Below are positions 4,237 to 24,000 of a DNA stretch of 24,000 nt, one piece after another. Origin of the DNA: Parasporobacterium paucivorans DSM 15970 (GTDB lineage Bacteria > Bacillota > Clostridia > Lachnospirales > Lachnospiraceae); assembly GCF_900141895.1 (NCBI RefSeq), contig NZ_FQYT01000025.1:14104-38103 (forward strand), read 5' to 3'. Under the pieces are notes generated by a model, which had not been told where the DNA came from, did not search any database, and saw nothing but the letters and a program-made list of their open reading frames with translations. The position numbers were made by a program, and so were the translations under genes. The first letter of the stretch is position 1, and every line of letters starts with the position of its first letter.

Positions 4237-5490
4237 ATGAAAAAAAAGGTATTGAAACGGTTTACTGCTGCAGCAATAATGGCATTACTGCTGCTGGGAA
4301 TGTTGTTCAGCAATCTGACAACGACTGATGTATTTGCCCTCGATGGGGTTACGGTACAAACGGGCCAGATGGGCAGTCCATCGCTGGCATCCTATGCCGG
4401 AACGGGGGCATCCCTGTCAGATCCTTACCGGATTGCTGTATCTCCCAATGCCTTCACGGCGCCGAGCGGTTTCTGGGGGCCGGAGGTTAACGGGGTGGAG
4501 AATGGATGCGGAGTATTTGCCGTATCCTTTGAACAGTACCCCATGGTTTCCGGAAAAACGGCAGGAAACATGATCAGTTCATCCACGTTTGATCTGGGGA
4601 ACAATGGTACTTCCGTGTGGAACGGAAGCTGGACCTATGCGTTCAGATTCCCAACATGGACAGTATTTGATACCTCAACAGGTGATTTGCGCATGGCATT
4701 CCCTTATAAAGGGAATTTCGACCTGTATTGGACGGACTGGGAATATAAATTTGATGCAGCTGGCCAGACGGCCGGGTTGTCAGCAGATAAGCAGATTAAG
4801 GCTGGTGATGTCGTCTGCATTACCCACTATGGGAATTATATCCAGGGTCAAAGCTCGAGAGGAACAAATTACACTGTCAATTTTGATGCAGCCATCGATT
4901 ACACAGGTGGAATCGTGCTGCCTGGCAGCGGCGGAACAGCATCTCCGGTCGTTCCAATGGAAACCCCGCTGGATGCGGTCTATTATGCAGTTGTGGATGA
5001 GAATGGGTATGCGTCCTTCTCAGGTGACAACGCAATCCTGTACGGTGGAAACTATCTTGTCCAGAAACTGTCTGTATCTGTAAATGCAGAAAATGACGTC
5101 TCCGCAATCGATACAAAAGGCGGGACCTTGGATCTGGATGCAGCTGTTGCTCCTTCCGCTGCATCGCAGTCGGTGACATGGCAGATTGTCAATGGCCAAT
5201 CCTTGGCATCCATTGATGAAAATGGAATTTTAACCGCGAAGGCGGATGGACAGGTTACCGTGAGGGCTGCTTCGAGTGCGTTTGATGGTGTTTATGGGGA
5301 TTATGTGATTACGATATCCAACCAGGCGGATAAGGTAACGGTGGCACCATCAGGCACCACTCCGTCAGCAACCGCTTCAACACCGAAGACCGGTGATAAT
5401 CCAATGACCTTACTGTATGCTGTCCTGGCAGCGGTGGCAGTTGGAATGGGATGCTTTGCTTCCAGGAACATCAGGAGAGGATTCAGATAG
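4237..5490 (+). CDS. Secreted, probably sortase-anchored surface protein with a Big_2-like domain
   Basis: It has an N-terminal signal peptide. Roughly 250 aa of N-terminal sequence match no motif I recognise. A Big_2-like segment reads 'VTWQIVNGQSLASIDENGILTAKADGQVTVRAAS'. The C-terminus 'TPKTGDN', hydrophobic helix and 'RNIRRGFR' tail form an (S/P)PxTG-like sorting signal similar to clostridial SrtB substrates. Confidence 0.75.
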   Translation: MKKKVLKRFTAAAIMALLLLGMLFSNLTTTDVFALDGVTVQTGQMGSPSLASYAGTGASLSDPYRIAVSPNAFTAPSGFWGPEVNGVENGCGVFAVSFEQYPMVSGKTAGNMISSSTFDLGNNGTSVWNGSWTYAFRFPTWTVFDTSTGDLRMAFPYKGNFDLYWTDWEYKFDAAGQTAGLSADKQIKAGDVVCITHYGNYIQGQSSRGTNYTVNFDAAIDYTGGIVLPGSGGTASPVVPMETPLDAVYYAVVDENGYASFSGDNAILYGGNYLVQKLSVSVNAENDVSAIDTKGGTLDLDAAVAPSAASQSVTWQIVNGQSLASIDENGILTAKADGQVTVRAASSAFDGVYGDYVITISNQADKVTVAPSGTTPSATASTPKTGDNPMTLLYAVLAAVAVGMGCFASRNIRRGFR

Positions 5491-6367: not shown

Positions 6368-7807
6368 ATGTATGATGTTGCAATTATCGGCGGGGGAATA
6401 TTGGGCTGTACAATCGCGCGGGAGCTGAGCAGATACCATCTGCATGTAACGGTCCTGGAAAAGGCCTACGACATCGGAGAGGGTGCGACGAAAACCAACA
6501 GCGGAGTTTTGGCGGCGGGATTTCACCCCCGTGGAGGAAGCCTCAAGGGTATTTCCTGTGTAAAGGGAAACGATATGTACAGGCAGATTTGCGAGGAACT
6601 GGACATACCGGTCCGGTTCATAGGTTCGCTGTATGTCGCCTTTAGCAGGAACGGCACGGAGATGATTGCTCAAAAATATAATAAAGGCATTAAGAATGGA
6701 GTACAGAGGATGGAAATAATCGACGGAGATCAGGCCAGATCCATGCAGCCCGGCTTATCCCCAAAGGTTATACAGGCTCTGTACGCACCCACCACGGGAA
6801 TCATTGACGTATTTGGCCTGATACTGAGAACAGCGCAAAATGCCTCTGAAAACGGAGTGGAATTTCATTTCGACACGGAAGTATCCGACATTATTGATGA
6901 GGGTAGGCATTATACGGTCCATACAAACAAAGGCACGGTTCAGGCTGAATATATCGTAAATACTGCCGGCGAAGAAGCTGCATCCATTGAGGGCTTCCTC
7001 AGGCCGGCAGATCTTGTCATCCGGCCCAGAAGAGGGCAGTTTTACGTCTTTGACAAACAGACAGATTCTGTTGTCAGGCATGTGATCTACCAAGCGCAGG
7101 ATATGGATGAGAAGGGCTGCCTGCTGACGCTTTCCATAGATGGAAATCTGATTGCAGGGCCGACCTCCGAAAATGTTTCTTCCTACAAAAGAGTCGAAAC
7201 TACCAGGGAAGGCCTCGAGCTGATTGAACAAGTGGCCAGGAAAATCATGCCCGGTCTGGATATGGGTAAAGTCATTGCCTCATTTGCAGGAGCCAGGACA
7301 AATATAAGCAATGTGGCAAAAGAAGAAAAGGATTTTGTTATCCGAAAGAGCGCCAGGAATATGGTAAGTGCCCTGGGAATCAAGAATCCCGGGCTGACGG
7401 GGGCACCCTATCTTGCTCTGAAAGCCGTTGACATTTTGCGGGAAGAAGGTCTCATACTCGAAGCAAAAGCCGGGTTCAACACCCAGGCAGTTTCAGGGAA
7501 AAAATTTCTGGACTGCAGTGTGGCGGAGCAAAAGAAACGGATGACAGAAGACCGGAGATATGGAAATGTGATATGCCGCTGCGAGAAAATCACGGAAGGG
7601 GATATTCTGCGTGTTCTAAGCGAACCGCTGCCTCCCAGAACCCTCAATGGCATGAAGAAAAGGCTCAGAGCCGGAATGGGAAGGTGCCAGGGAAGCTTCT
7701 GTACGCCCAGAATCATTGAGATACTCAGCAGGGAAATGAAAGTCAAGCCGGAAAAAATCCTTAAGAATACCCAGGGAAGCAGTCTGGTAAAGGGGAGGGT
7801 CAAGTAA
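6368..7807 (+). CDS. FAD-dependent oxidoreductase, GlpA / L-2-hydroxyglutarate-oxidase-like, with a C-terminal BFD-like [2Fe-2S] domain
   Basis: The N-terminal dinucleotide fold is 'YDVAIIGGGILGCTIARELS'. The C-terminal 'CRCEKITEGDI...RAGMGRCQGSFC' shows the BFD-like Cys pattern. The start is 1 nt after the previous stop. Confidence 0.85.
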   Translation: MYDVAIIGGGILGCTIARELSRYHLHVTVLEKAYDIGEGATKTNSGVLAAGFHPRGGSLKGISCVKGNDMYRQICEELDIPVRFIGSLYVAFSRNGTEMIAQKYNKGIKNGVQRMEIIDGDQARSMQPGLSPKVIQALYAPTTGIIDVFGLILRTAQNASENGVEFHFDTEVSDIIDEGRHYTVHTNKGTVQAEYIVNTAGEEAASIEGFLRPADLVIRPRRGQFYVFDKQTDSVVRHVIYQAQDMDEKGCLLTLSIDGNLIAGPTSENVSSYKRVETTREGLELIEQVARKIMPGLDMGKVIASFAGARTNISNVAKEEKDFVIRKSARNMVSALGIKNPGLTGAPYLALKAVDILREEGLILEAKAGFNTQAVSGKKFLDCSVAEQKKRMTEDRRYGNVICRCEKITEGDILRVLSEPLPPRTLNGMKKRLRAGMGRCQGSFCTPRIIEILSREMKVKPEKILKNTQGSSLVKGRVK

Positions 7808-9237
7808 TGGAGGTTTTTTCTCATTATGAACTGGTTATTGTAGGGGCAGGGGCGGCCGGGATGGCCGCCGCTGTGTCAGCAGGAAAAAAGGGAATCAAAA
7901 AAATACTGATTGTGGATCGCAACGAGCATTCCGGTGGTATATTGAGGCAATGTATCCACGACGGGTTCGGGCTACATCTGCTTCAGGTTTCCATGACCGG
8001 ACCTGAGTATGCGGAATACTGGCAGGCGAAAATGGGCGGCTGCGGTGCGGAGATTTCCCTTTCCACTACCATACTGGACATCGATTACGAAAAAAAACCA
8101 TATCGGCTGACGTTTTTGAACGAGGAATATGGATATGGGGTCTGTGAGGCAGACGCAATCATACTGGCATGCGGCTGCCGGGAGCGTACCCTCGGACAGA
8201 TGCGGATTCCCGGGAGCCGCCCGGCAGGGGTATACACTGCGGGAACTGCCCAGTATATGATGAATGTCAGGAACCTTCTGCCGGGAAGAACGGCTGTGAT
8301 TCTGGGGTCCGGAGATATAGGGCTTATAATGGCCAGAAGGTTTACGCTGGAAGGAATCAAAGTAAGGCTGATTTTGGGAGAAGCAGCATCTGGTCTGGCC
8401 CGGAATCATATACAGTGCGTGAAGGATTTTGGCATTCCCATCCGCTTTGGATATACAGTCCTTTCCATCCACGGATATCGCAGGCTCAAGGGGGTTACCA
8501 TAGCTCCCCTGGATGCGGGTGGAATGCCTCGTATTGAAGAGAAGGAATATATCCAGTGCGATACACTTCTGGTGGCCGCAGGTCTGATTCCGGAAACGGA
8601 ATTATGGAGCCTGCCGGATAACCCGCTATCTGAAGTCGGAGGTATATTGACTGACGCAGAAGGCAGAACGTCACAGCCTGGCGTGTTTGCCTGTGGAAAT
8701 GTGACGAAAATCTTTGATTTGGTGGATAAGGTCAGCCTGGCCGGGGAAAAGGCTGGAATCGCGGCATATGATTACTTGTATGCCAGAAACAAGAATCCTG
8801 CGCCGAATCATAAAAATGATGCCTTTTTTGAAAGGAGAGAGCCCACGTATGAAGCATTGGCTGCACTGGGGGAAAATGAAATGATATGCACCCGGTGCCC
8901 CCGTGGGTGCATCTTGCACATAGCGAAACACACAGGTAACGGCAGGGGATATGATGTTAGTGGAGAGGGCTGTAAAAAAGGGATGGAAGCCGCACTGGAA
9001 GAACTGACTATGCCTAAAAGGATTCTGACAACAACTGTAAAAGTGGAAGAAGGAAGAAGCATACTCATCCCGGTCCGGAGTGAAAATCCAGTCCCAAAAG
9101 GGCTGCTCCGAGCGGCGGTAAAAGAATGCAACCGCTGCATTTTAAAGGCTCCGGTAAGCCGGGGGCAGGTGGTCCTAGGAAATGTTGCAGGCAGCGGTGT
9201 GGATATGATAGCATCAGGAACGGTTGAAAAGATATGA
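7807..9237 (+). CDS. Pyridine nucleotide-disulfide-type FAD oxidoreductase fused to a DUF1667 domain
   Basis: The N-terminus 'YELVIVGAGAAGMAAAVSA...IVDRNEHSGGIL' and a second Rossmann motif 'AVILGSGDIGLIMA' mark the oxidoreductase part. From about nt 8881 onward, 'CTRCPRGCILHI...VSGEGCKKG...PKRILTTTVKV...VPVRSENPVPKG...APVSRGQVVLGNVAGSGVDMIASG' matches my recollection of DUF1667. The start overlaps the previous stop (TAATG). Confidence 0.8.
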   Translation: MEVFSHYELVIVGAGAAGMAAAVSAGKKGIKKILIVDRNEHSGGILRQCIHDGFGLHLLQVSMTGPEYAEYWQAKMGGCGAEISLSTTILDIDYEKKPYRLTFLNEEYGYGVCEADAIILACGCRERTLGQMRIPGSRPAGVYTAGTAQYMMNVRNLLPGRTAVILGSGDIGLIMARRFTLEGIKVRLILGEAASGLARNHIQCVKDFGIPIRFGYTVLSIHGYRRLKGVTIAPLDAGGMPRIEEKEYIQCDTLLVAAGLIPETELWSLPDNPLSEVGGILTDAEGRTSQPGVFACGNVTKIFDLVDKVSLAGEKAGIAAYDYLYARNKNPAPNHKNDAFFERREPTYEALAALGENEMICTRCPRGCILHIAKHTGNGRGYDVSGEGCKKGMEAALEELTMPKRILTTTVKVEEGRSILIPVRSENPVPKGLLRAAVKECNRCILKAPVSRGQVVLGNVAGSGVDMIASGTVEKI

Positions 9238-10253
9238 TACAAAAGAAGAATGGAACGTTTTCAATTTTTTTACTGGTATCCACCCCTGTATTTTTTATGA
9301 TTGCCTCTTTGTTTGTGGGACGTTACCGGGTCTCGGCGTGTGATGTGGTTCAAAGTCTTGTCAGCGCCATTGGGCTAGGAAGGTTTGAACTGTCCAGGGA
9401 AGCATTTGCGGTAGTGTCGCAGCTCAGGCTGCCAAGGATTGTAGCAGCGGCCTTCGTTGGAGGTGGACTGGCCGCCAGCGGCACGGCATTTCAAGGAGTT
9501 TTTCGAAATCCACTGGTGAACTCCGGACTCCTTGGAGTGAATTCCGGAGCCGGTTTTGGAGCGGCCCTGGCAATTATTCTGTTGGGTGGATATGGATATA
9601 CCTACGGATTTGCATTCGTTTTTGGTGTTCTGGCTGTTGCGATGAGCTACTGGATAGCCCGGATCTACAAAACCGTCCCGGCGGTCATGCTTATCCTTGG
9701 AGGGACGATTGTATCGGCTTTTTTCAGCGCGATGATTACTCTGCTCAAATATATTGCGGATGTTGACACGGAGCTTCCGGCAATAGTCTACTGGCTGATG
9801 GGAAGTCTTTCTTCCGTGTCATATGGGGATTTCTGGGCCTTTATCCCGATTGGAGCAGGAATCACGGTTTTAATGCTTTTTGGATGGCGAATCAACGTCA
9901 TTTCAATGGGGGATAAAGAAGCGAGGTCCATGGGAGTGGATGTCGTTAAATGTAAAATTGGAATTATTTTAGCCGCCACGATGGCTACCGCGGGGGCTGT
10001 CTGCCTGTCGGGAGGGGTGGGATGGGTAGGCCTTGTGATTCCCCACATTGGCCGGATGGTCGTCGGGAATGACAACAGGAGGCTTATGCCTGTATCCGTT
10101 TCCATCGGAGCATCGTTTATGGTATGCATAGATACGATAAGCCGCAGCGCTACAACTTCAGAAATACCCTTAGGCGTTCTGACGGCTCTTGTAGGAGCAC
10201 CTTTCTTCGTATTTCTTCTTAAAAAAACAAAAGGAGGCGGATGGAAGGCATGA
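9234..10253 (+). CDS. FecCD-family ABC importer permease (iron-siderophore / heme / corrinoid type)
   Basis: 'RLPRIVAAAFVGGGLAASGTAFQGVFRNPLV' and about nine hydrophobic helices are typical of FecCD/BtuC. ATGA start-stop overlap with the upstream oxidoreductase. Confidence 0.9.
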   Translation: MIQKKNGTFSIFLLVSTPVFFMIASLFVGRYRVSACDVVQSLVSAIGLGRFELSREAFAVVSQLRLPRIVAAAFVGGGLAASGTAFQGVFRNPLVNSGLLGVNSGAGFGAALAIILLGGYGYTYGFAFVFGVLAVAMSYWIARIYKTVPAVMLILGGTIVSAFFSAMITLLKYIADVDTELPAIVYWLMGSLSSVSYGDFWAFIPIGAGITVLMLFGWRINVISMGDKEARSMGVDVVKCKIGIILAATMATAGAVCLSGGVGWVGLVIPHIGRMVVGNDNRRLMPVSVSIGASFMVCIDTISRSATTSEIPLGVLTALVGAPFFVFLLKKTKGGGWKA

Positions 10254-11071
10254 GAAACCGACACAATAAACCGACGGGTCCTGACATAATCCAGATTGAA
10301 AATGCGACATTCCACTATGACGATAAACCCATTTTTAAGGACATTCATCTCGAAACAGCAGCAGGGGAATTGTTCTGTATTATGGGATGCAATGGATGTG
10401 GAAAAAGCACCCTTTTGGACTGCATTCTGGGGAATCACATCCTCGGGAGGGGAACAATCCTGGTGTCAGGAAAAGAGGTATCCGGTTACCGGCCGGCCGA
10501 ATTGGCGAAAAAAATCTCCTATGTCCCGCAGATACATGAAAAGTCATTTCCTTATCTCGTACGGCAGATTGTCCTGATGGGGAGGACAGCCCATTTGGGA
10601 GGATATGGGAAACCGGATGAGCTGGATGAGGATATTTCAGAGCAAAGTATGAAGGATGCCGGGATCGCCCACCTGGCAGACCGGCCATACACCCAGATCA
10701 GCGGAGGTGAAATGCAGATGGTTGCATTAGCCAGGGCTCTGGCACAGAAAACGCCCATCATCCTGATGGATGAGCCTACGGCCCACCTGGATTTTTTTAA
10801 TGAGATGCTCTTTTTGGAAAAAACAGTAGGATTGGTAAATACGGGGAACCGCACCATATTGATGGCAACCCATTCGCCCAATCAGGCCTTTTACCTGGAA
10901 AACCAGGGGGTAAAGGTGCGGGTCGCCCTGATGCATGAGGGTGCAATCTTTTCTGTTGGATCTCCTGATGAGGTGCTGACAGAAGAGAACCTGGCAAAAG
11001 TATATGGGGTCAAAGTCCGGATTCTTAGGGATGAAAACAGGAAACAAATAGTTCCTGTTGGGACCATTTAA
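10241..11071 (+). CDS. ABC transporter ATP-binding protein (FepC/FecE/BtuD type)
   Basis: Walker A 'GCNGCGKSTLL', signature 'ISGGEMQMVALARAL', Walker B 'IILMDEPTAHLD'. An alternative start ATG lies at 10250. It overlaps the end of the permease gene. Confidence 0.9.
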   Translation: MEGMRNRHNKPTGPDIIQIENATFHYDDKPIFKDIHLETAAGELFCIMGCNGCGKSTLLDCILGNHILGRGTILVSGKEVSGYRPAELAKKISYVPQIHEKSFPYLVRQIVLMGRTAHLGGYGKPDELDEDISEQSMKDAGIAHLADRPYTQISGGEMQMVALARALAQKTPIILMDEPTAHLDFFNEMLFLEKTVGLVNTGNRTILMATHSPNQAFYLENQGVKVRVALMHEGAIFSVGSPDEVLTEENLAKVYGVKVRILRDENRKQIVPVGTI

Positions 11072-11094
11072 AAAACAGACAGGGAGCCGGGAGA

Positions 11095-12195
11095 ATGCGT
11101 AAAATACAAAAAATAGCAGTATTTATTTTCGTGATGTTCACATTAATTGTAGTCTGTACGGCATGCAGCGGCCAGTCAGGGGCAGCGTCGGGCAAAGAAA
11201 CGGACACTTTTATTGACTGCATCGGACGGAAAGTGGAAATCCCCAAAACGATCAGAAAAGTAGCGGCAATCGATGCTTTTACGGGAGAAGCAATGGTGAT
11301 GATGGGAGCGGGCAGCTATATGGCAGCCTGTCCCGAAGGCGTCCGTTCGGATATGCTTCTTCAGGAAATCTATCCGGAACTGAAAGATGTGGCAGTTGTT
11401 CAGTCAGGCGGTTCCATTAATGCGGAGGCATTGCTTGCATTGGATCCGGATGTGGTATTGGTGAAATATGCCCTGTATATGACGGAAGGCGAAGTCGCGA
11501 AGCTGGATAAGCTGGGGATTCCATATCTCGTTATCGAATATACGAATATGGAGGAGCAGATTGAAGCACTGAACCTGATCGGGGAAGTGGTTGGAGGCAA
11601 GCCCCTGGAAAAAGCAGAAACAATCTGCCGGTATTATGAAGATACCATCCATCTGGTGACGGAAATCAGCGAAAAAATTCCCCAGAAAGAGAAGCTGGCT
11701 GTGTATCATTCAATCAATCAGACATTCAGGACGGATGGGGAGGATTCCCTGGGAGCGGACTGGATAAAGGCCGTCGGCTGCAAGGATGTTTCGGCGGACC
11801 AGGCCCTGACGTCAGATGGCGGCGGATATTTTGCGAGCCAGGAACAGGTTTTCGTATGGAACCCGGATGTCATTATATGCAATGCAGCCCTGACAAAAAA
11901 ATATTTTGAAGAGGATGCGGCGTGGCAGGGTCTTCGGGCAGTCTATGAGGGGAATGTCCATAACATACCGGTCGGAGCCACGCGATGGGGGCAGGAAGGA
12001 AGTGTGGAAACATTTTTTGGGATGCTCTGGCTCGGTGTCACCGTATATCCTGAGTATTACAGCCAGGTTAATCTGAAAAATGAGGTCGTGACATTTTATC
12101 GGGATGTATTAGGGATAGAGTTGGACGATGCTACATATGAAAAAATATTATCAGGTGATGGAATACGGGCTTCCAGCCAGAATGCGGGGAAATAG
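11095..12195 (+). CDS. ABC transporter substrate-binding lipoprotein (Peripla_BP_2 / class III, siderophore-heme-B12 type)
   Basis: Signal peptide with Cys ('VVCTACSG'). 'KVAAIDAFTGEAMVMMG' and 'LDPDVVLV' are typical of FhuD/BtuF-like binding proteins. Confidence 0.85.
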   Translation: MRKIQKIAVFIFVMFTLIVVCTACSGQSGAASGKETDTFIDCIGRKVEIPKTIRKVAAIDAFTGEAMVMMGAGSYMAACPEGVRSDMLLQEIYPELKDVAVVQSGGSINAEALLALDPDVVLVKYALYMTEGEVAKLDKLGIPYLVIEYTNMEEQIEALNLIGEVVGGKPLEKAETICRYYEDTIHLVTEISEKIPQKEKLAVYHSINQTFRTDGEDSLGADWIKAVGCKDVSADQALTSDGGGYFASQEQVFVWNPDVIICNAALTKKYFEEDAAWQGLRAVYEGNVHNIPVGATRWGQEGSVETFFGMLWLGVTVYPEYYSQVNLKNEVVTFYRDVLGIELDDATYEKILSGDGIRASSQNAGK

Positions 12196-15175: not shown

Positions 15176-16594
15176 ATGAAAATGAAAAATACCCGTTTTA
15201 ATGGGAGACTTATAGTTATTGGCGCAAGCGCTGTCGTTTTGGCGTCTGCCGCCGGCACGGCTTTTGTTTTTACTGACCATACGGATACTTCCGCTGAAAC
15301 ATCCGTTGCACCTGAAGATGGAACTGTGGATAAGGCTGCGCTGCTTACCCGGGAAGATATCGAAAACTATTTATATGAAAAAAATCTGATCAGCATGGCA
15401 CATGCCCACGAATTGCTGGCTTCCAGGCCGGTTTTGACTCTGAAGGTCTCCTCTGTGGGAAGCCGGGTTTCTGTCAAAATTGTACTGCCTGACGGAAATC
15501 TTGCAACAGGCAATCTTTTTGTCATAACGCTTACGGATGAAGCGGGGACTCGAACCGAATATACCAATAATGACATGGATGGGTGGATCATCATCGATAA
15601 TCTTGAAAAAGGAGATTATGCAGTATCCATGAATGAGATGAAGGATTTCGTCACTCCTGCCTCCCCGACGGTGACTGTTGAAGGTGAGGTAGCGCCTGTG
15701 GCAGTAGCGAATATTGAGGAGAAAGTAGTCAGTGAAGCGAAGATCGTTGTAGCCGAAGAAGATGCTGCTTATGGAAACGTGACGACGGCTGAAACGGTAC
15801 AGGATACTCCTGCCCCTGAAACGACTGCATCTGCACCGACCGAGACGTCTGCCGAAACATCTGTACAGCCGGTTTTTACGGGTTGGCAGACATTCGACGG
15901 CAGTACCTATTATTACGATGGAACCGGTAACCGGGTAACCGGCTGGCAGACGATTGGCGGGTTGAAATATTATTTTAATGAGTCTGGGGTGAAATCGTCC
16001 AAAGTCGGCGTCGACGTATCGAGATACCAGTATGCAATCGACTGGGCGGCGGTCAAGGCCTCAGGAGTTGATTATGCGATTATACGTCTCGGATACAGAG
16101 GATACGGTTCCGGGGCCCTGGTGCTGGATCCGTATTACATCCAAAATATCAGAGGTGCATCAGCCGCCGGCCTGCAAGTGGGAGTCTATTTCTTTTCACA
16201 GGCCATTACAGAGACGGAAGCTGTAGAGGAAGCCAGTATGGTGCTGGAGTACATCCGCGGCTACAATATTTCCTGTCCGGTTGCTTTTGATACGGAGTTC
16301 GTGAATGATGTTGCGCGGGCAAATAATTTGTCTGCTACTGACAGGACGACCATTGCACTGGCCTTCTGCAGAACCATTGCCAATGCCGGATATACATCTA
16401 CTGTATATGCAAGCAAAAGTTTTCTATACAACAATCTGGAATTATCCAGACTGTCGGGATATCAGACATGGCTGGCGCATTATGTCAATATGACGGATTA
16501 CGCCTACGATTATGATATGTGGCAGTATACGTCCAAGGGTTCCATAAACGGAATCAGCACGGGCGTTGATCTGAATGTCTGGTTAAACAATTGA
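15176..16594 (+). CDS. GH25 muramidase (lysozyme) with cell-wall-binding repeats
   Basis: N-terminal signal anchor. Two CW_binding_1-type repeats read 'GWQTFDGSTYYYDGTGNRVTGWQTIGGLKYYFNESG'. The C-terminal 'GVDVSRYQYAIDWAAVKASGVDYAIIRLGYRG...VAFDTE' is GH25. Confidence 0.9.
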   Translation: MKMKNTRFNGRLIVIGASAVVLASAAGTAFVFTDHTDTSAETSVAPEDGTVDKAALLTREDIENYLYEKNLISMAHAHELLASRPVLTLKVSSVGSRVSVKIVLPDGNLATGNLFVITLTDEAGTRTEYTNNDMDGWIIIDNLEKGDYAVSMNEMKDFVTPASPTVTVEGEVAPVAVANIEEKVVSEAKIVVAEEDAAYGNVTTAETVQDTPAPETTASAPTETSAETSVQPVFTGWQTFDGSTYYYDGTGNRVTGWQTIGGLKYYFNESGVKSSKVGVDVSRYQYAIDWAAVKASGVDYAIIRLGYRGYGSGALVLDPYYIQNIRGASAAGLQVGVYFFSQAITETEAVEEASMVLEYIRGYNISCPVAFDTEFVNDVARANNLSATDRTTIALAFCRTIANAGYTSTVYASKSFLYNNLELSRLSGYQTWLAHYVNMTDYAYDYDMWQYTSKGSINGISTGVDLNVWLNN

Positions 16595-16619
16595 CAATCG
16601 AAGATTTAAGTTATATTGT
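16591..16619 (+). promoter_or_regulatory. Possible promoter for the NTF2 / URO-D / heliorhodopsin operon
   Basis: TTGACA (16591-16596, overlapping the GH25 stop) is followed by TATATT at 15-nt spacing or TATTGT at 17-nt spacing. The spacing and hexamer quality are ambiguous. Read-through from the GH25 gene is also possible because no terminator lies between them. Confidence 0.3.
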
Positions 16620-16677
16620 TGAAATACAGTTACACGAAACCGAAAACATATGCAAAAAAACCTAAGGAGGAAATTCT

Positions 16678-16998
16678 ATGATATTGGAAGATTACATTGC
16701 TCGCATGAACAAAAGTGATTTTGAAGGTATTGGAAATTTGTTTACGGAAGGTTGTCGGTTTAATGACGGAGGCGCAAGAACCATCGGTGTGGATGACCTG
16801 GTAGTGAATGGACGGGAAGCCTTGAAAAAGGCATTTCAGGGGGTCTGGGAAGTATATAAGGTTCGGGCTGAAATTGTAAAGCTGAATGCACATTCTATGG
16901 AATATGACGTATTTCTGGGAGATGTCAAACTTGAATGTATCGGCTGTGCAACTTTGAAAGACGGTCTTATCGATGAATATATTGTGAGACCCCGCTGA
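16678..16998 (+). CDS. NTF2 / SnoaL-like small protein
   Basis: 106 aa. The size and the N-terminal 'YIARMNKSDFEGIGNLFTEGCRFNDGG' pattern are typical of SnoaL-like domains. Strong RBS AAGGAGG. Confidence 0.6.
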   Translation: MILEDYIARMNKSDFEGIGNLFTEGCRFNDGGARTIGVDDLVVNGREALKKAFQGVWEVYKVRAEIVKLNAHSMEYDVFLGDVKLECIGCATLKDGLIDEYIVRPR

Positions 16999-17030
16999 TT
17001 AGGGCGTTTTATCAGAACAGGAGGGTTTGC

Positions 17031-18032
17031 ATGTTAACAAGAAGAGAGAATCTGCTGGAAACAATCCGGGGAGGAAACCCGGATCGTTTTGTGAAACAGT
17101 TTGAACCATTTGCCCTTCAGTGGGCGACACCCCAGGATGTCAGATTTCCTGCTCCCGAGTATGGAAAAGGAATAGCCAGAAACTGCTGGGGAGTCTATTT
17201 TTCGTGGCCGGAGGGAACGCCCGGACCGGTGTCGTCACTTGATTCCGAACACCGTCTGATTAAGGATATTTACCACTGGCAGGATTATCTGAAGATGCCG
17301 GAAACGGAATTTCCTGAAAGCGAGTGGAAATGGATTATGGAACGGGCGGATAAGGTGGATCGGAACGAGTATTTCGTGACGGCCGCCATATGGCCGGGAT
17401 TATTTGAAAACTGCCTCCATATGATGGGTATGGAGGAGTTCGTAATCAATATGTATGAAGAACCGGAAATTATCCATGCTATTCTGGATCTCATGACGGA
17501 ATATGAGGTGCGGATGGCACGTCAGATTTGTAATCACATCCATCCGGATGCAGTTTTCCGCCTGGATGACTGGGGCGGTCAGTCTTCCACGTTCCTCTCC
17601 GTGGAGATGTTCCATGAGTTTATCTTTGAGAGGACCAAGAAAATCTACGATACATACCGGGAAAATGGGGTTGAGATTATCGTTCACCATTCCGATTCAT
17701 ATGCAGAGACCCTGGTACCGGAAATGCTGAATATGGGTATCGATATCTGGCAGGGTGCCTTCAACACGAATGATCTTCCCCGCCTCGTCCGTGAGTATAA
17801 GGGCAGGCTGACTGTAATGGGCGGCATCAACTCCGGAATCGTTGACAGTCCGGATTGGACACGGGAGAAGGTGGCTGCAGAAGTGGAGAAGATTATAAGG
17901 TGGACAGACTCCAGGTATTTCATTCCGAACCTGACTTTTGGGGGAGATGAAAGCACCTATAGAGGAGTGTATGAGGCGGCAGATGCGGAGATTGAAAAAA
18001 TGGGTAAGGAGTATTTTGCGGAAATCAAATAA
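17031..18032 (+). CDS. Uroporphyrinogen decarboxylase (URO-D) family protein, MtaA/CmuA-like methyltransferase subgroup
   Basis: 333 aa. 'RRENLLETIRGGNPDR', 'FRLDDWGGQ' and 'IVHHSDSY' resemble the expanded URO-D-family paralogs of anaerobic Firmicutes. RBS GGAGGG. Confidence 0.8.
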   Translation: MLTRRENLLETIRGGNPDRFVKQFEPFALQWATPQDVRFPAPEYGKGIARNCWGVYFSWPEGTPGPVSSLDSEHRLIKDIYHWQDYLKMPETEFPESEWKWIMERADKVDRNEYFVTAAIWPGLFENCLHMMGMEEFVINMYEEPEIIHAILDLMTEYEVRMARQICNHIHPDAVFRLDDWGGQSSTFLSVEMFHEFIFERTKKIYDTYRENGVEIIVHHSDSYAETLVPEMLNMGIDIWQGAFNTNDLPRLVREYKGRLTVMGGINSGIVDSPDWTREKVAAEVEKIIRWTDSRYFIPNLTFGGDESTYRGVYEAADAEIEKMGKEYFAEIK

Positions 18033-18048
18033 GTAGGAGGACGTAAGG

Positions 18049-18834
18049 ATGACCAATAAAACGACGTTCAAATCACTTTGGAGATTCAACCTGATTATGG
18101 GCTGTATCCACTGCCTGCAGGGTGTGGTTATGGTGGTGCTCGCGTTATCTATTGACAGGATTTCGGCCTTCAAGATTCCGGTTTTATCCAATTTTCTGAA
18201 GTTCGATACCGAAACTATGAGGTTGGTAACGGACACCCGGACTCTGTTTTCGGTGCCATTCGCGGTTTTTGTGTCTGTTTTCCTATTCCTGTCGGCTTTG
18301 GCTCATTTTATTATTTGTGCTCCGATATCAAATGATGTCTATAATGCCAGTCTCGTTAAAAGGAGAAATCCTTTCCGCTGGTATGAATACGCCCTCAGTT
18401 CATCCCTGATGATTGTTCTGATTGCACTCTTATTCGGGGTGTATGACGTCGGGTCCCTGATTCTGATGTTTGCCCTGAATGCCTGCATGAATCTTTTTGG
18501 GCTGCTGATGGAACAGCAGAATCAAAACAGGATGCCGATAAACTGGACTCCATTTGTTTTTGGATCTTTCGCGGGACTGGTTCCCTGGGGCGTTTTGTGC
18601 ATGTTTGCCTTCGGGAATTCGGATCTTGGCAAGGTGCCTTGGTTTGCATATGCCATTTTTGGGTCTTATTTTGTGTTTTTTAATCTGTTTCCTATCAATA
18701 TGATTCTCCAATATAAGCAGATAGGAAAATGGAGGGATTATTTATATGGAGAAAGGGTATACATCATACTGAGTCTGGTGGCCAAAACGGTATTAGCCTG
18801 GCTGGTATTCTTTGGAGTGATGCAGCCAAATTAA
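18049..18834 (+). CDS. Heliorhodopsin
   Basis: 261 aa with seven hydrophobic helices. It is colinear with my recollection of heliorhodopsin 48C12: 'KSLWRFNLIMGCIHCLQ', 'LSALAHF', 'FRWYEYALSSSLMIVLIA', 'NACMNLFGLLME', 'GLVPW', 'FFNLF...LQYKQIGKWRDYLYGERVYIILSLVAKTVLAW'. The Schiff-base Lys is retained (K246, nt 18784-18786), as are the counterion Glu (E113) and both His residues (H21, H86). Confidence 0.9.
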   Translation: MTNKTTFKSLWRFNLIMGCIHCLQGVVMVVLALSIDRISAFKIPVLSNFLKFDTETMRLVTDTRTLFSVPFAVFVSVFLFLSALAHFIICAPISNDVYNASLVKRRNPFRWYEYALSSSLMIVLIALLFGVYDVGSLILMFALNACMNLFGLLMEQQNQNRMPINWTPFVFGSFAGLVPWGVLCMFAFGNSDLGKVPWFAYAIFGSYFVFFNLFPINMILQYKQIGKWRDYLYGERVYIILSLVAKTVLAWLVFFGVMQPN

Positions 18835-18841
18835 ACAAAGG

Positions 18842-18882
18842 AAAGAGAGCCAATGCGGTTTTTTGCATCAGCTCTCTTTTTT
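18842..18882 (+). terminator. Rho-independent terminator of the heliorhodopsin operon
   Basis: AAAGAGAGC (18842-18850) / GCTCTCTTT (18871-18879), with inner ATGC/GCAT pairing, followed by a T-run. Confidence 0.8.
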
Positions 18883-18925
18883 GAAAATTGGATGGAGAAA
18901 TCTTTATAACTGCTTTATGTTAATT

Positions 18926-18952
18926 TTCAAATGGGGTGAGTGCCCATTTGAA
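18926..18952. repeat. Perfect 10-bp inverted repeat in the AT-rich gap
   Basis: TTCAAATGGG (18926-18935), 7-nt spacer gtgagtg, CCCATTTGAA (18943-18952). Confidence 0.7.
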
Positions 18953-19131
18953 GCAATTATCTTTTTTGGTGCCGAATGAATTAAATGTAAGTTGTGTGAA
19001 AATAAAATATCATTATTAGAAGAATAAGTCAATTTAATTTAAAAATTCACAAATATAATAAAAATATAACAAGATTACCAATAAATTGACGATATATGCA
19101 GATGGATTCCAGAAGAGATTTGAAGAGTAAG

Positions 19132-19140
19132 TGGTATAAT
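19132..19140 (+). promoter_or_regulatory. Extended -10 promoter element (TGgTATAAT)
   Basis: TG at 19132-19133 and TATAAT at 19135-19140. There is no good -35. It lies about 130 nt upstream of the pirin-like start and upstream of the first palindrome copy. Confidence 0.4.
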
Positions 19141-19231
19141 ATCATGAAAGGATGGCAGAATATGGATCTTAATGATATATTATTAAAGGAGCGTTAGGGG
19201 GTTCACACGTTGGGGGGAGCCACACGTTTAG

Positions 19232-19244
19232 GGGGTCAGACCCC
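19232..19244. repeat. GGGGTCAGACCCC palindrome, copy 1
   Basis: Exact 13-mer. It extends to an imperfect TTAGGGGGTC/GACCCCTAA palindrome. It is preceded by related G-run units (TTAGGGGGTTCACACG, TTGGGGGGAGCCACACG). It ends 25 nt before the pirin-like ATG. Confidence 0.95.
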
Positions 19245-19269
19245 TAAGATGACAGAAGGAGATAATTTC

Positions 19270-19968
19270 ATGATAAGAAAAATTTATAGCAGCAAATTGG
19301 GTACAAGTGATATAGGATGGTTAAAAAGCAGGTTTCATTTTTCCTTTGCTGATTATTATAATCCCGAAAATATAAATTTTGGAACGTTAAGGGTCCTCAA
19401 TGATGACCAGATATTTCCCAATTCGGGGTTTGATATTCATCCGCACAATGAAATGGAAATAATATCTTATGTTGTCGATGGAAAATTGACCCACAGCGAT
19501 AACATGGGAAATAAGAATGCAATTTCCCGGGGAGATATACAGTACATGAGTGCCGGTACAGGCGTTTGGCATAGCGAATTCAATCGGGGGCAGGAGATCC
19601 TGCGGTTTCTCCAGATATGGATTATTCCTGATAAGAAAGGTTATAACCCAAGCTACGGAGATTTCCCTTTTGCATGGGAAAGCAGAAAGAATAGCTGGCT
19701 TCATATGGTGTCAGACCCCGAGGGAGGAGCACCAATTAAAATTCATCAGGACTGCAATATTTATTCACTTGAACTCGAAGCCGGCAAAGAAATTCAATTT
19801 CCAGTAAATGAGGAGAGGCAGGCTTATCTGGTACAGATTGAAGGATCCTCTGATATTAATGGTATAGATATGACCGAACGGGATGCCATGGAAATTATTG
19901 GAGAACCCATTACGATCAAAGCAAGTAAAACGTCACATATACTTCTAATTGAAATGAAGAAGGTATAG
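19270..19968 (+). CDS. Pirin-family (YhhW-like) cupin protein
   Basis: 232 aa from the ATG at 19270 (RBS GAAGGAG, 8-nt spacing). 'GWLKSRFHFSFADYYNPENINFGTLRVLNDD', 'GFDIHPHNEMEIISYVVDGKLTHSDNMGN' and 'GDIQYMSAGTGVWHSEFN' are pirin hallmarks. The track start at 19210 (TTG) was not used. Confidence 0.85.
   Translation: MIRKIYSSKLGTSDIGWLKSRFHFSFADYYNPENINFGTLRVLNDDQIFPNSGFDIHPHNEMEIISYVVDGKLTHSDNMGNKNAISRGDIQYMSAGTGVWHSEFNRGQEILRFLQIWIIPDKKGYNPSYGDFPFAWESRKNSWLHMVSDPEGGAPIKIHQDCNIYSLELEAGKEIQFPVNEERQAYLVQIEGSSDINGIDMTERDAMEIIGEPITIKASKTSHILLIEMKKV
19707..19719. repeat. 12/13 degenerate copy (GGTGTCAGACCCC) inside the pirin-like CDS
   Basis: It differs from the 13-mer only at position 3 and encodes 'VSDP' in frame. 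Confidence 0.5.
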
Positions 19969-19988
19969 ACGTTGACAAAAGGTGAGGG

Positions 19989-22886: not shown

Positions 22887-24000
22887 GTGCGCCTGGCGGC
22901 GCACGTTTCTAAAGGGTGAAAGTCCCAAATCCGCCCTAGTAGTGGGAAGGATACAGCCAAGACCAAGGGTGTCCATCGTGAGGTGGAATCTGAAGGAAGG
23001 TGGAGGCAAAACTCTGGTCTGACGAACAGAAATCACATGAGGCTATACGTTGAGGATAAGGTTGCCAGACAAACCAAAGTCCAATTACTACTCGGAATCA
23101 ACTATAGTAAATGTGGCAGATGGATGGAGTGAAAGAAACGTGTGGTACCCAGGGAGATCTCGCCAGCGGATGGAAACAGAGTATGAAATCCGTGAGTAAC
23201 AACGAATGGCGAGAAGTCAGCAGAAGCCATATTAAACCGATGGTTGCAAAAATCGGCGAAGGGCTGAACTTTAGGAGATACAAGCAATGAAAGTAACTGA
23301 TAGTAGATTTAAGAACAGACAACTTCATATTGAGGACTATCTGCAAATGGTATCGGCGGAACAGAAAGAGTATGCAGAAGTGTTCGACTACGGGAAGATT
23401 ACTGAAAAGAGCGGTATCATCACAGACTATTGGACGAACAATCTTTTGGATTTGATTTTACTAAAAGATAACCTTAATAAGGCTTATAAAAGGGTGAAAG
23501 CAAACAAGGGCAAAGGTGGAATTGATGGTATGCAGGTGGATGAACTTCTGCCCTTCCTAAGAGAAAATCAAGATACCCTAATCCAAGAGATAAGGAATGG
23601 TAAATATAAGCCAAACCCAGTTCGAAGGGTAGAAATACCCAAAGAAACAAAAGGTGAGTTTAGAAAGATAGGAGTTCCAACTGTAGTTGACAGGGTTATT
23701 CAACAGGCAATCACACAGGAACTTACACCAATCTATGAGGAACAATTCTCAGAAAACAGTTTTGGTTTTCGACCAAAAAGAGGAGCACACGGTGCCCTCA
23801 AGCAGTGCCAAAAGAATGTAAACGATGGCTATGTATATGTGGTGGATATGGACTTGGAAAAGTTCTTTGATACTGTAAGTCAGAGTAAACTGATTGAGGT
23901 ACTTAGCAGAACCATTAAAGACGGTAGACTGATTTCACTCATCCATAAATATCTGAATGCGGGAGTTATTGCAAACGGAATGTTTGAGAGAACAGAAATA
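22887..24000 (+). mobile_element. Group II intron (5' portion; continues beyond the window)
   Basis: GTGCG lies at 22887, the expected 5' boundary. Strings typical of domain I are present (GGGTGAAAGTCCC, GGTGGAATCTGAAGGAAGG). About 400 nt of structured non-coding RNA precede an RT/maturase ORF that begins at 23287. Confidence 0.85.
23287..24000 (+). CDS. Group II intron reverse transcriptase/maturase (N-terminal 238 codons; truncated by the window end)
   Basis: My own translation is open from the ATG at 23287 to the window end. 'AYKRVKANKGKGGIDGM', 'RRVEIPKETKGEFRKIGVPTVVDRVIQQAI', 'SFGFRPKRGAHGAL' and 'YVVDMDLEKFFDTV' are RT blocks 1-4. The YADD block would lie beyond 24000. Confidence 0.9.
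   Translation, partial: MKVTDSRFKNRQLHIEDYLQMVSAEQKEYAEVFDYGKITEKSGIITDYWTNNLLDLILLKDNLNKAYKRVKANKGKGGIDGMQVDELLPFLRENQDTLIQEIRNGKYKPNPVRRVEIPKETKGEFRKIGVPTVVDRVIQQAITQELTPIYEEQFSENSFGFRPKRGAHGALKQCQKNVNDGYVYVVDMDLEKFFDTVSQSKLIEVLSRTIKDGRLISLIHKYLNAGVIANGMFERTEI

Follow-up and report, generated by a model that had tools for sequence, protein, structure and literature searches.

A heliorhodopsin gene closes a three-gene unit, probably a lineage-specific mosaic, in the strict anaerobe Parasporobacterium paucivorans

Hypotheses about the partners of heliorhodopsins (HeRs), the function of which is still open, come mainly from gene context. Characterized HeRs regulate a glutamine synthetase (GS), a photolyase, or an ABC transporter encoded next to them (PMC11109279; PMC9769723), and a promoter common to HeR and neighboring genes is predicted for about 39% of helR genes (PMC11109279). 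The contexts are variable, with histidine kinases, oxidative-stress genes, and GS/NAD synthetase among them (Bulzu et al., PMC8612252); ten frequent neighbor groups have been described, and URO-D and SnoaL are in none of these (Cho et al., PMC11109279). Here, we describe a HeR gene that is preceded by one gene of each of the latter two families in a 24,000-nt stretch of the genome of Parasporobacterium paucivorans DSM 15970 (contig NZ_FQYT01000025.1, positions 14,104 to 38,103 of the forward strand; hereafter the window, numbered from its first letter). This organism is an anaerobe from freshwater sediment that lives by the O-demethylation of methoxylated aromatics (Lomans et al. 2001, cited in PMC8359953). 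A literature search found no paper naming both heliorhodopsin and uroporphyrinogen decarboxylase. The reading that we favor, with appreciable room for doubt, is that a bona fide HeR forms the last gene of a three-gene unit that is a lineage-specific mosaic and no conserved functional module.

By its sequence, the protein encoded at 18049-18834 (plus strand, 261 aa) is a genuine heliorhodopsin, as a preliminary description made from the letters of the window had proposed. It matches Pfam PF18761 over the whole profile (positions 1-242 of 242; 337.4 bits against a cutoff of 26.7, E = 5.6e-101) and the NCBIfam equivalog NF038020 with 312.8 bits (cutoff, 100), and it aligns over its full length with TaHeR (6is6, E = 6.5e-60) and 48C12 (6su3, E = 1e-51). 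The four key residues named in the preliminary description, H21, H86, E113, and K246, are placed exactly and are invariant across 42 HeRs; E113 (in FRWYEYALSS) aligns with E108 of TaHeR (RWFEYSIS) and K246 (in SLVAKTVLAW) with TaHeR K238. In 48C12, the Schiff-base lysine (transmembrane helix 7) and the counterion glutamate (helix 3) are K241 and E107, and from the family alignment we take H21 and H86 to be the counterparts of its H23 and H80. Lysine and arginine residues number 12 in the predicted cytoplasmic segments (N terminus and intracellular loops 1 to 3) versus 6 outside; this would suit an inverted topology with the N terminus inside, but it is a crude count on TaHeR-like boundaries, with transmembrane helices 3 and 4 merged in the hydropathy scan. 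The family assignment itself is already annotated and not new: the protein is WP_073994409.1, “heliorhodopsin HeR” in NCBI and UniRef for DSM 15970, and the representative of its 90% cluster is a 77-aa fragment. Among the homologs are also HeRs of about 390 aa with an N-terminal MORN-repeat (PF02493) fusion, 66 to 67% identical to the window HeR (P0094, P0098, P0102, P0114, and P0118); the MORN-HeR fusion has been described before (Bulzu et al., PMC8612252).

By analogy with characterized HeRs, the protein would bind all-trans-retinal at K246 and then, as a light sensor with a slow cycle, modulate a partner, soluble or in the membrane, via its cytoplasmic face; a generic light sensor is its most likely role. 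It could instead be a relic without function in a strict anaerobe that lives in the dark and is unable to make retinal, its position in the operon being meaningless. No retinal-synthesis domain was found among the scanned ORFs of the window, in agreement with the preliminary description, and the host, rightly judged there to be a strict anaerobe, lives in sediment (PMC8359953); both points would suit a relic. However, the open reading frame (ORF) is intact and has a good ribosome-binding site (RBS), and all 82 residues that are invariant over the 42 homologs are kept, the four named above included. Retinal can be scavenged, and HeRs are widespread in anaerobic Clostridia in our homolog searches. 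HeR-bearing anaerobic Firmicutes have already been described as well (PMC8612252), and we hold a relic to be very improbable indeed.

The three genes of the unit all lie on the plus strand. The first encodes a SnoaL_2/NTF2-like protein (16678-16998, 106 aa; RBS AAGGAGG at 16664-16670), the second a URO-D-superfamily protein (17031-18032, 333 aa; RBS GGAGG at 17020-17024), and the third the HeR (RBS GGAGG at 18036-18040). Gaps of 32 nt (SnoaL/URO-D) and 16 nt (URO-D/HeR) separate them, and the tight spacing and the GGAGG-type RBS of each gene are as first described, as is the single terminator after HeR: an intrinsic terminator hairpin whose 3' side is rich in U (18839-18882, plus strand) closes the unit, and at -21.7 kcal/mol (z = -3.76; none of 200 shuffled sequences does equally well) it is the strongest terminator-like site of the area in a terminator scan. 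On the 5' side, a candidate sigma-70-like promoter, TTGACA-17-TATTGT (16591-16619, plus strand), lies 59 nt before the SnoaL start codon; its 10 of 12 consensus matches are a consensus match alone, and the count of promoter-like sites in the region is not above shuffle expectation. The same terminator scan found no terminator between the GH25 gene and this candidate, so read-through from GH25 is possible, and an Rfam scan of the operon found no known RNA families. From this layout, it is reasonable to infer that SnoaL, URO-D, and HeR are cotranscribed. URO-D and HeR are almost certainly coexpressed in P. paucivorans, because the 16-nt gap between them holds no promoter-like site in a consensus scan.

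The conservation of these neighbors was surveyed in 163 other HeR loci, made up of 80 species-representative genomes, 79 metagenome contigs, and the contigs of the closest database homologs; ORF calling was crude, and for comparison, scoring of 8,000 candidates puts the number of HeR clusters in the database at 6,892 or more (E ≤ 1e-10). By tblastn, L001 was the only one of the 163 loci with a SnoaL homolog (1 of the 144 in which 400 nt or more precede HeR), and none had a URO-D of the window type (0 of the 120 in which 1.5 kb or more do). Both genes are missing beside the HeRs that come next in similarity (76%, 72%, and 71% identical), and no enrichment of NTF2-like proteins was found among 132 small ORFs flanking HeR in the 163 loci. 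What lies upstream of close HeR homologs is diverse: among 72 such genes, DUF4153 is the commonest (6), followed by Thioredoxin_4 (3), with two each of Oxidored_FMN, DUF2177, AhpC/TSA, Ogt-type DNA_binding_1, DNA_alkylation, and others and a single glutamine synthetase. A conserved HeR-partner operon should place the same family beside HeR in several independent lineages, and neither family is so placed. The specific URO-D/NTF2 partner pair of the preliminary description, which was itself made to depend on conservation of the adjacency, has thereby largely lost its footing.

Three further arrangements were seen in the surveyed loci. At L002:6449-8786, a 72%-identical HeR gene is divergent to a glutamine synthetase gene (glnA), which is followed by ANTAR, CTP synthase, and GlmS genes, and this fits the published HeR-GS link (PMC11109279). 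The commonest small HeR neighbor in the sample is a LigT-like 2'-5' RNA ligase/phosphoesterase gene, convergent on the minus strand and directly 3' of HeR in eight loci, mostly from Alkalibacterium (L022, L028, L035, L051, L056, L071, L073, and L103, at about 6860-7440). Metagenome contig L117 carries two HeR copies about 3.4 kb apart (414-1196 and 4555-5337).

The closest HeR locus, L001, shares about 20 kb of synteny with the window (GGDEF, GH25, SnoaL, HeR, MFS, flavodoxin, and GLF); HeR is 80%, SnoaL 90%, and the MFS protein 72% identical. There, HeR directly follows SnoaL after a 53-nt gap, with no URO-D between them. DNA comparison reduces the URO-D cassette (about 16999-18066 of the window) to 71 nt in L001 with clean junctions, and the junction sequences of the two loci are not alignable. 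The URO-D gene is a gene-sized indel, either inserted in the P. paucivorans lineage or lost in L001. Its GC content (0.484; 0.551 at third codon positions) compares with 0.424 to 0.435 for its neighbors and is inside the spread of other window genes. A second gene-sized indel lies between HeR and MFS, where the pirin region of the window (about 18834-19975), consisting of a pirin gene (19210-19968) and a 375-nt AT-rich spacer (GC 0.30), corresponds to 173 nt in L001. In addition, L001 carries a different, 437-aa URO-D-superfamily gene (L001:14407-16786), divergent from a GGDEF_2/HTH_30 regulator and 6 kb 3' of HeR, which illustrates how common URO-D paralogs are in such genomes.

The SnoaL protein is 100% identical to the P. 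paucivorans “nuclear transport factor 2 family protein” and matches SnoaL_2 (PF12680) marginally, with 29.5 bits over residues 4 to 69 against a cutoff of 27. Its family comprises 55 database clusters, nearly all of 106 aa, and the members are 53 to 100% identical to the window protein, barring one fragmentary match; those of Clostridia and Bacillaceae are about 75 to 85% identical. The usual site of the gene is 0 to 40 nt after that of a 648- to 649-aa flavoenzyme with Oxidored_FMN and Pyr_redox_2 domains, with an HTH_30 regulator gene divergent to it. This arrangement is found in L084, L087, L089, L090, and L174 (flavoenzyme-SnoaL at L084:4058-6321, L087:4020-6321, L089:4027-6321, and L174:1893-4201), and L088 has a truncated Pyr_redox-type ORF at the flavoenzyme position before SnoaL. 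The carriers are Alkalibacter mobilis and several contigs from metagenome-assembled genomes (MAGs) or metagenomes. In Oceanobacillus, the SnoaL gene sits between aldehyde dehydrogenase and chemoreceptor genes. No HeR was found in any of these contexts. The SnoaL and flavoenzyme genes form a tightly coupled, uncharacterized two-gene module, which in A. mobilis is preceded by two URO-D-family genes.

These comparisons bear on the idea that SnoaL and HeR are the relevant pair, with URO-D as a later hitch-hiking insertion and the NTF2-like protein as a soluble partner or ligand carrier in the Parasporobacterium clade. SnoaL stands directly 5' of HeR in L001, the order is the same in the window with URO-D in between, and in both loci SnoaL has parted from its usual flavoenzyme; moreover, SnoaL is 90% identical between the two, versus 59 to 80% for the flanking genes. 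Nevertheless, only two related genomes share the arrangement, and their synteny explains the adjacency without selection. SnoaL is absent beside the next three HeR relatives, NTF2-like proteins are not enriched around HeRs, and the identity of about 75 to 85% even to HeR-less Bacillaceae members shows that the conservation belongs to the family and not to the pairing. A SnoaL-HeR partnership is, to our mind, distinctly improbable.

The URO-D protein (WP_073994408.1; 100% identical to the P. paucivorans entry) matches PF01208 with 58.3 bits (cutoff, 23.9) over residues 125 to 303, its C-terminal half only. In a Foldseek search, its AlphaFold2 model (predicted local distance difference test [pLDDT] score of 94.7) retrieved 2inf (HemE), 4ay7 (MtaA), and 1uro at a probability of 1.00 and template modeling (TM) scores of 0.60 to 0.67. 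The Pfam match and the predicted URO-D TIM-barrel fold place the protein in the URO-D superfamily. The barrel is about equally far from HemE 2inf and MtaA 4ay7 (TM score of about 0.65, 13 to 17% identity), and PDB sequence searches with the single sequence and with a 36-sequence profile found no relative. NCBIfam scores are low for HemE (TIGR01464, 20.3 bits; cutoff, 302.95) and for MtaA/CmuA (TIGR01463, 36.7 bits; cutoff, 235.4; NF004889, 38.2 bits; cutoff, 244). Among 36 family members, no cysteine is invariant or nearly so, and the invariant motif is H219-H220-S/x-D222. The zinc site of MtaA consists of His-x-Cys ... Cys and activates the thiol acceptor (references cited in PMC10418091); because the family has no conserved cysteine, this zinc-thiolate site is absent from it. 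A true HemE or MtaA is ruled out by these scores and the missing cysteines. Of the preliminary description, the family labels of both upstream genes hold, the SnoaL_2 one narrowly, and the likeness to a tetrapyrrole decarboxylase or corrinoid methyltransferase does not extend to HemE or MtaA themselves; the URO-D paralog that it mentions was not recovered, as tblastn found no second copy in the window.

The URO-D family is large (1,664 database clusters at E ≤ 1e-5; members listed are of about 330 aa). Each of the genes for its closest homologs (62 to 70% identical) is followed by an MFS gene, and they are found among HTH_30 regulators, MttB-superfamily methyltransferases, and URO-D paralogs; no HeR was found in these contexts. 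Among the members of the UroD superfamily are corrinoid O-, S-, and halogen-demethylases (PMC10418091), and corrinoid demethylation clusters contain MFS transporters and UroD-superfamily methyltransferases (PMC8359953; PMC10418091). The layout around the homologs is that of such clusters and fits the O-demethylating physiology of P. paucivorans, and the window protein is probably a corrinoid-dependent methyltransferase. In domain scans of the window, neither a corrinoid protein nor an activase was found to be encoded beside the three-gene unit. We also considered whether the MFS gene 3' of HeR is the remnant of an ancestral URO-D-MFS pair invaded by HeR, and we rejected this because the window MFS is not detectably homologous by tblastn to the MFS proteins that follow URO-D elsewhere.

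Could the HeR modulate the cotranscribed URO-D enzyme by light, with or without SnoaL, for example, by stopping or protecting methyl-corrinoid transfer under illumination? The tight operon with a single terminator and the precedent of HeRs that act on proteins encoded beside them favor such a role, and methylcobalamin is known to be photolabile. A second lineage adds to this. In three Eubacteriales MAG species, a 411- to 417-aa “hypothetical protein” is encoded directly 5' of HeR on the same strand (L005:4674-5912, L014:1214-2449, and L069:4607-5860), with an ORF-HeR gap of 84 to 140 nt; the HeRs are 87 to 90% identical to each other and 66 to 70% identical to that of the window. The ORF scores 17 to 18 bits against the Pfam URO-D profile, just under the cutoff, and hhalign of the 412-aa ORF against the window URO-D family gives a probability of 94.8% (E = 5e-8) over 79 columns that cover the two most conserved motifs. 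On these alignments, the protein is a probable, very divergent URO-D-superfamily member; an AlphaFold2 model of the 412-aa protein, built from 4 sequences, had a pLDDT score of 37 and was not used. The ORF-HeR-ABC exporter-Fe-hydrogenase block is common to L005 and L069, and the gene 5' of the ORF differs (aconitase X in L005, MatE in L069).

Several observations argue against a light-controlled URO-D enzyme. The window type of URO-D is found in none of the 163 other loci and is missing from the SnoaL-HeR junction of L001, its closest homologs occur without HeR, and genes for a corrinoid protein or an activase are missing beside the operon in the window. A family HMM from the window URO-D alignment missed its positive control, the 437-aa URO-D protein of L001, and was replaced by a jackhmmer panel of 8 diverse superfamily queries, which over all HeR loci returned only the L005, L014, and L069 genes and the nonadjacent L001 gene. 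With the window left out for ascertainment bias, URO-D-superfamily genes occur near HeR twice independently and are adjacent to it in only one of these cases, no more than chance could produce. Moreover, the 88-nt gap before the L005 HeR contains a promoter-like TTGACA-17-TAGAAT, so that this HeR has a promoter-like site of its own, and none of the genes around the L005/L069 ORF (aconitase X, MatE, ABC exporter, and Fe-hydrogenase) is obviously corrinoid-related. We regard a URO-D partner as unlikely; what is left of the partner idea draws on the distant URO-D-like gene of the second lineage, the window-type URO-D being present at no other surveyed HeR locus.

A different tetrapyrrole-related family also occurs beside HeR. 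Genes for Staygreen (SGR) proteins (PF12638, Mg-dechelatase family; E = 8.5e-56) lie directly 3' of HeR on the same strand at L027:6001-7372, L117:4555-5905, and L161:6001-7307, with a spacing of about 50 to 140 nt, depending on the true start codon. The carriers are Clostridium frigoris DSM 14204, a near-identical metagenome contig, and one distant lineage, the HeR and SGR proteins of which are 48% and 46% identical to those of C. frigoris, that is, similarly diverged. A literature search found no paper naming heliorhodopsin together with Staygreen or dechelatase. These Mg-tetrapyrrole genes in two further lineages count in favor of a URO-D partner in the window, and with the P. paucivorans URO-D and the Eubacteriales 412-aa gene they make four cases, which suggest that HeR genes may repeatedly be placed beside tetrapyrrole-handling enzymes, with a role in light-gated control of photosensitizing or photolabile tetrapyrroles in nonphototrophic monoderms. 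The theme is weak, having been put together post hoc from heterogeneous neighbors, a point that also tells against the URO-D partner, and we rate it as rather improbable. If it were true, the tetrapyrroles concerned would be corrinoids, porphyrinogens, and ingested chlorophyll, and the unit described here would be a case in point; such a link would agree with a published proposal that HeRs aid monoderms in coping with porphyrin-mediated photo-oxidative stress. Testable leads in this direction are the pairs of HeR and Staygreen genes and the distant URO-D-like neighbor of the second lineage.

In the reading of the unit as a lineage-specific mosaic, the SnoaL and URO-D genes, each with a conserved setting elsewhere, look like parts of catabolic modules that ended up 5' of HeR in this lineage. 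The URO-D gene would have been gained between SnoaL and HeR in the P. paucivorans lineage or lost from that position in L001. Four points weigh against this reading. The neighbor survey is a limited sample of 163 loci with crude ORF calling; no outgroup by which the indel could be polarized shares the SnoaL-HeR junction; the 412-aa URO-D-like gene beside HeR means that URO-D-superfamily adjacency may not be pure accident; and URO-D and HeR, being almost certainly coexpressed, may be functionally coupled in this species, unlikely as we hold this to be. Even so, the SnoaL and URO-D neighbors are not convincing as a light-regulated partner pair, and gene context does not name the partner of this HeR. 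The P. paucivorans case indicates that a single tight operon can mislead on partners, because both upstream genes have conserved homes elsewhere and L001 lacks one of them at the corresponding junction. It also provides an example of a HeR from a cultivable strict anaerobe (DSM 15970).

Elsewhere in the window, group II intron RNA domains are found at 22972-23264 (RF02001, 145 bits; RF01998, 44.6 bits), just after the UDP-galactopyranose mutase gene. At 6368-12195, two flavoprotein genes (DAO/BFD-like; Pyr_redox_2 plus DUF1667) run into genes for a FecCD/ABC ATPase/Peripla_BP_2 importer of the siderophore-or-cobalamin type. Rfam searches found no cobalamin riboswitch in the window.

Compared with known systems, the SnoaL protein is related to polyketide cyclase SnoaL and ketosteroid isomerase by its marginal SnoaL_2 match and a weak match to the steroid delta-isomerase 3ov4 (E = 0.45). 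In contrast to these enzymes, it is shorter than most of the family at 106 aa, and the conserved partner of its own family is an OYE-type/FAD flavoenzyme and not a polyketide or steroid cluster. The URO-D protein resembles corrinoid-dependent demethylation systems in its predicted TIM barrel, in the clustering of its homologs with MFS, MttB, HTH_30, and URO-D paralog genes, and in coming from a bacterium that is itself O-demethylating; it differs from the MtaA type in scores of 36 to 38 bits against cutoffs of 235 to 244 and in the lack of conserved zinc-site cysteines, and from such systems in general in that no corrinoid protein is encoded beside it. The operon as a whole is like the HeR-GS, HeR-photolyase (TfHeR), and HeR-ABC transporter OmrDE pairs in that HeR is predicted to be cotranscribed with other proteins, whereas the neighbors in those pairs recur in many genomes and SnoaL plus URO-D do not in the surveyed loci. 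The HeR itself, known here from sequence, comes from a strictly anaerobic Lachnospiraceae-type bacterium and is only partially identical to TaHeR (6is6) and 48C12 (6su3), yet it is colinear with both from end to end, has the same size of about 260 aa with no extra domain, and conserves the Schiff-base lysine, the counterion glutamate, and the two histidines.

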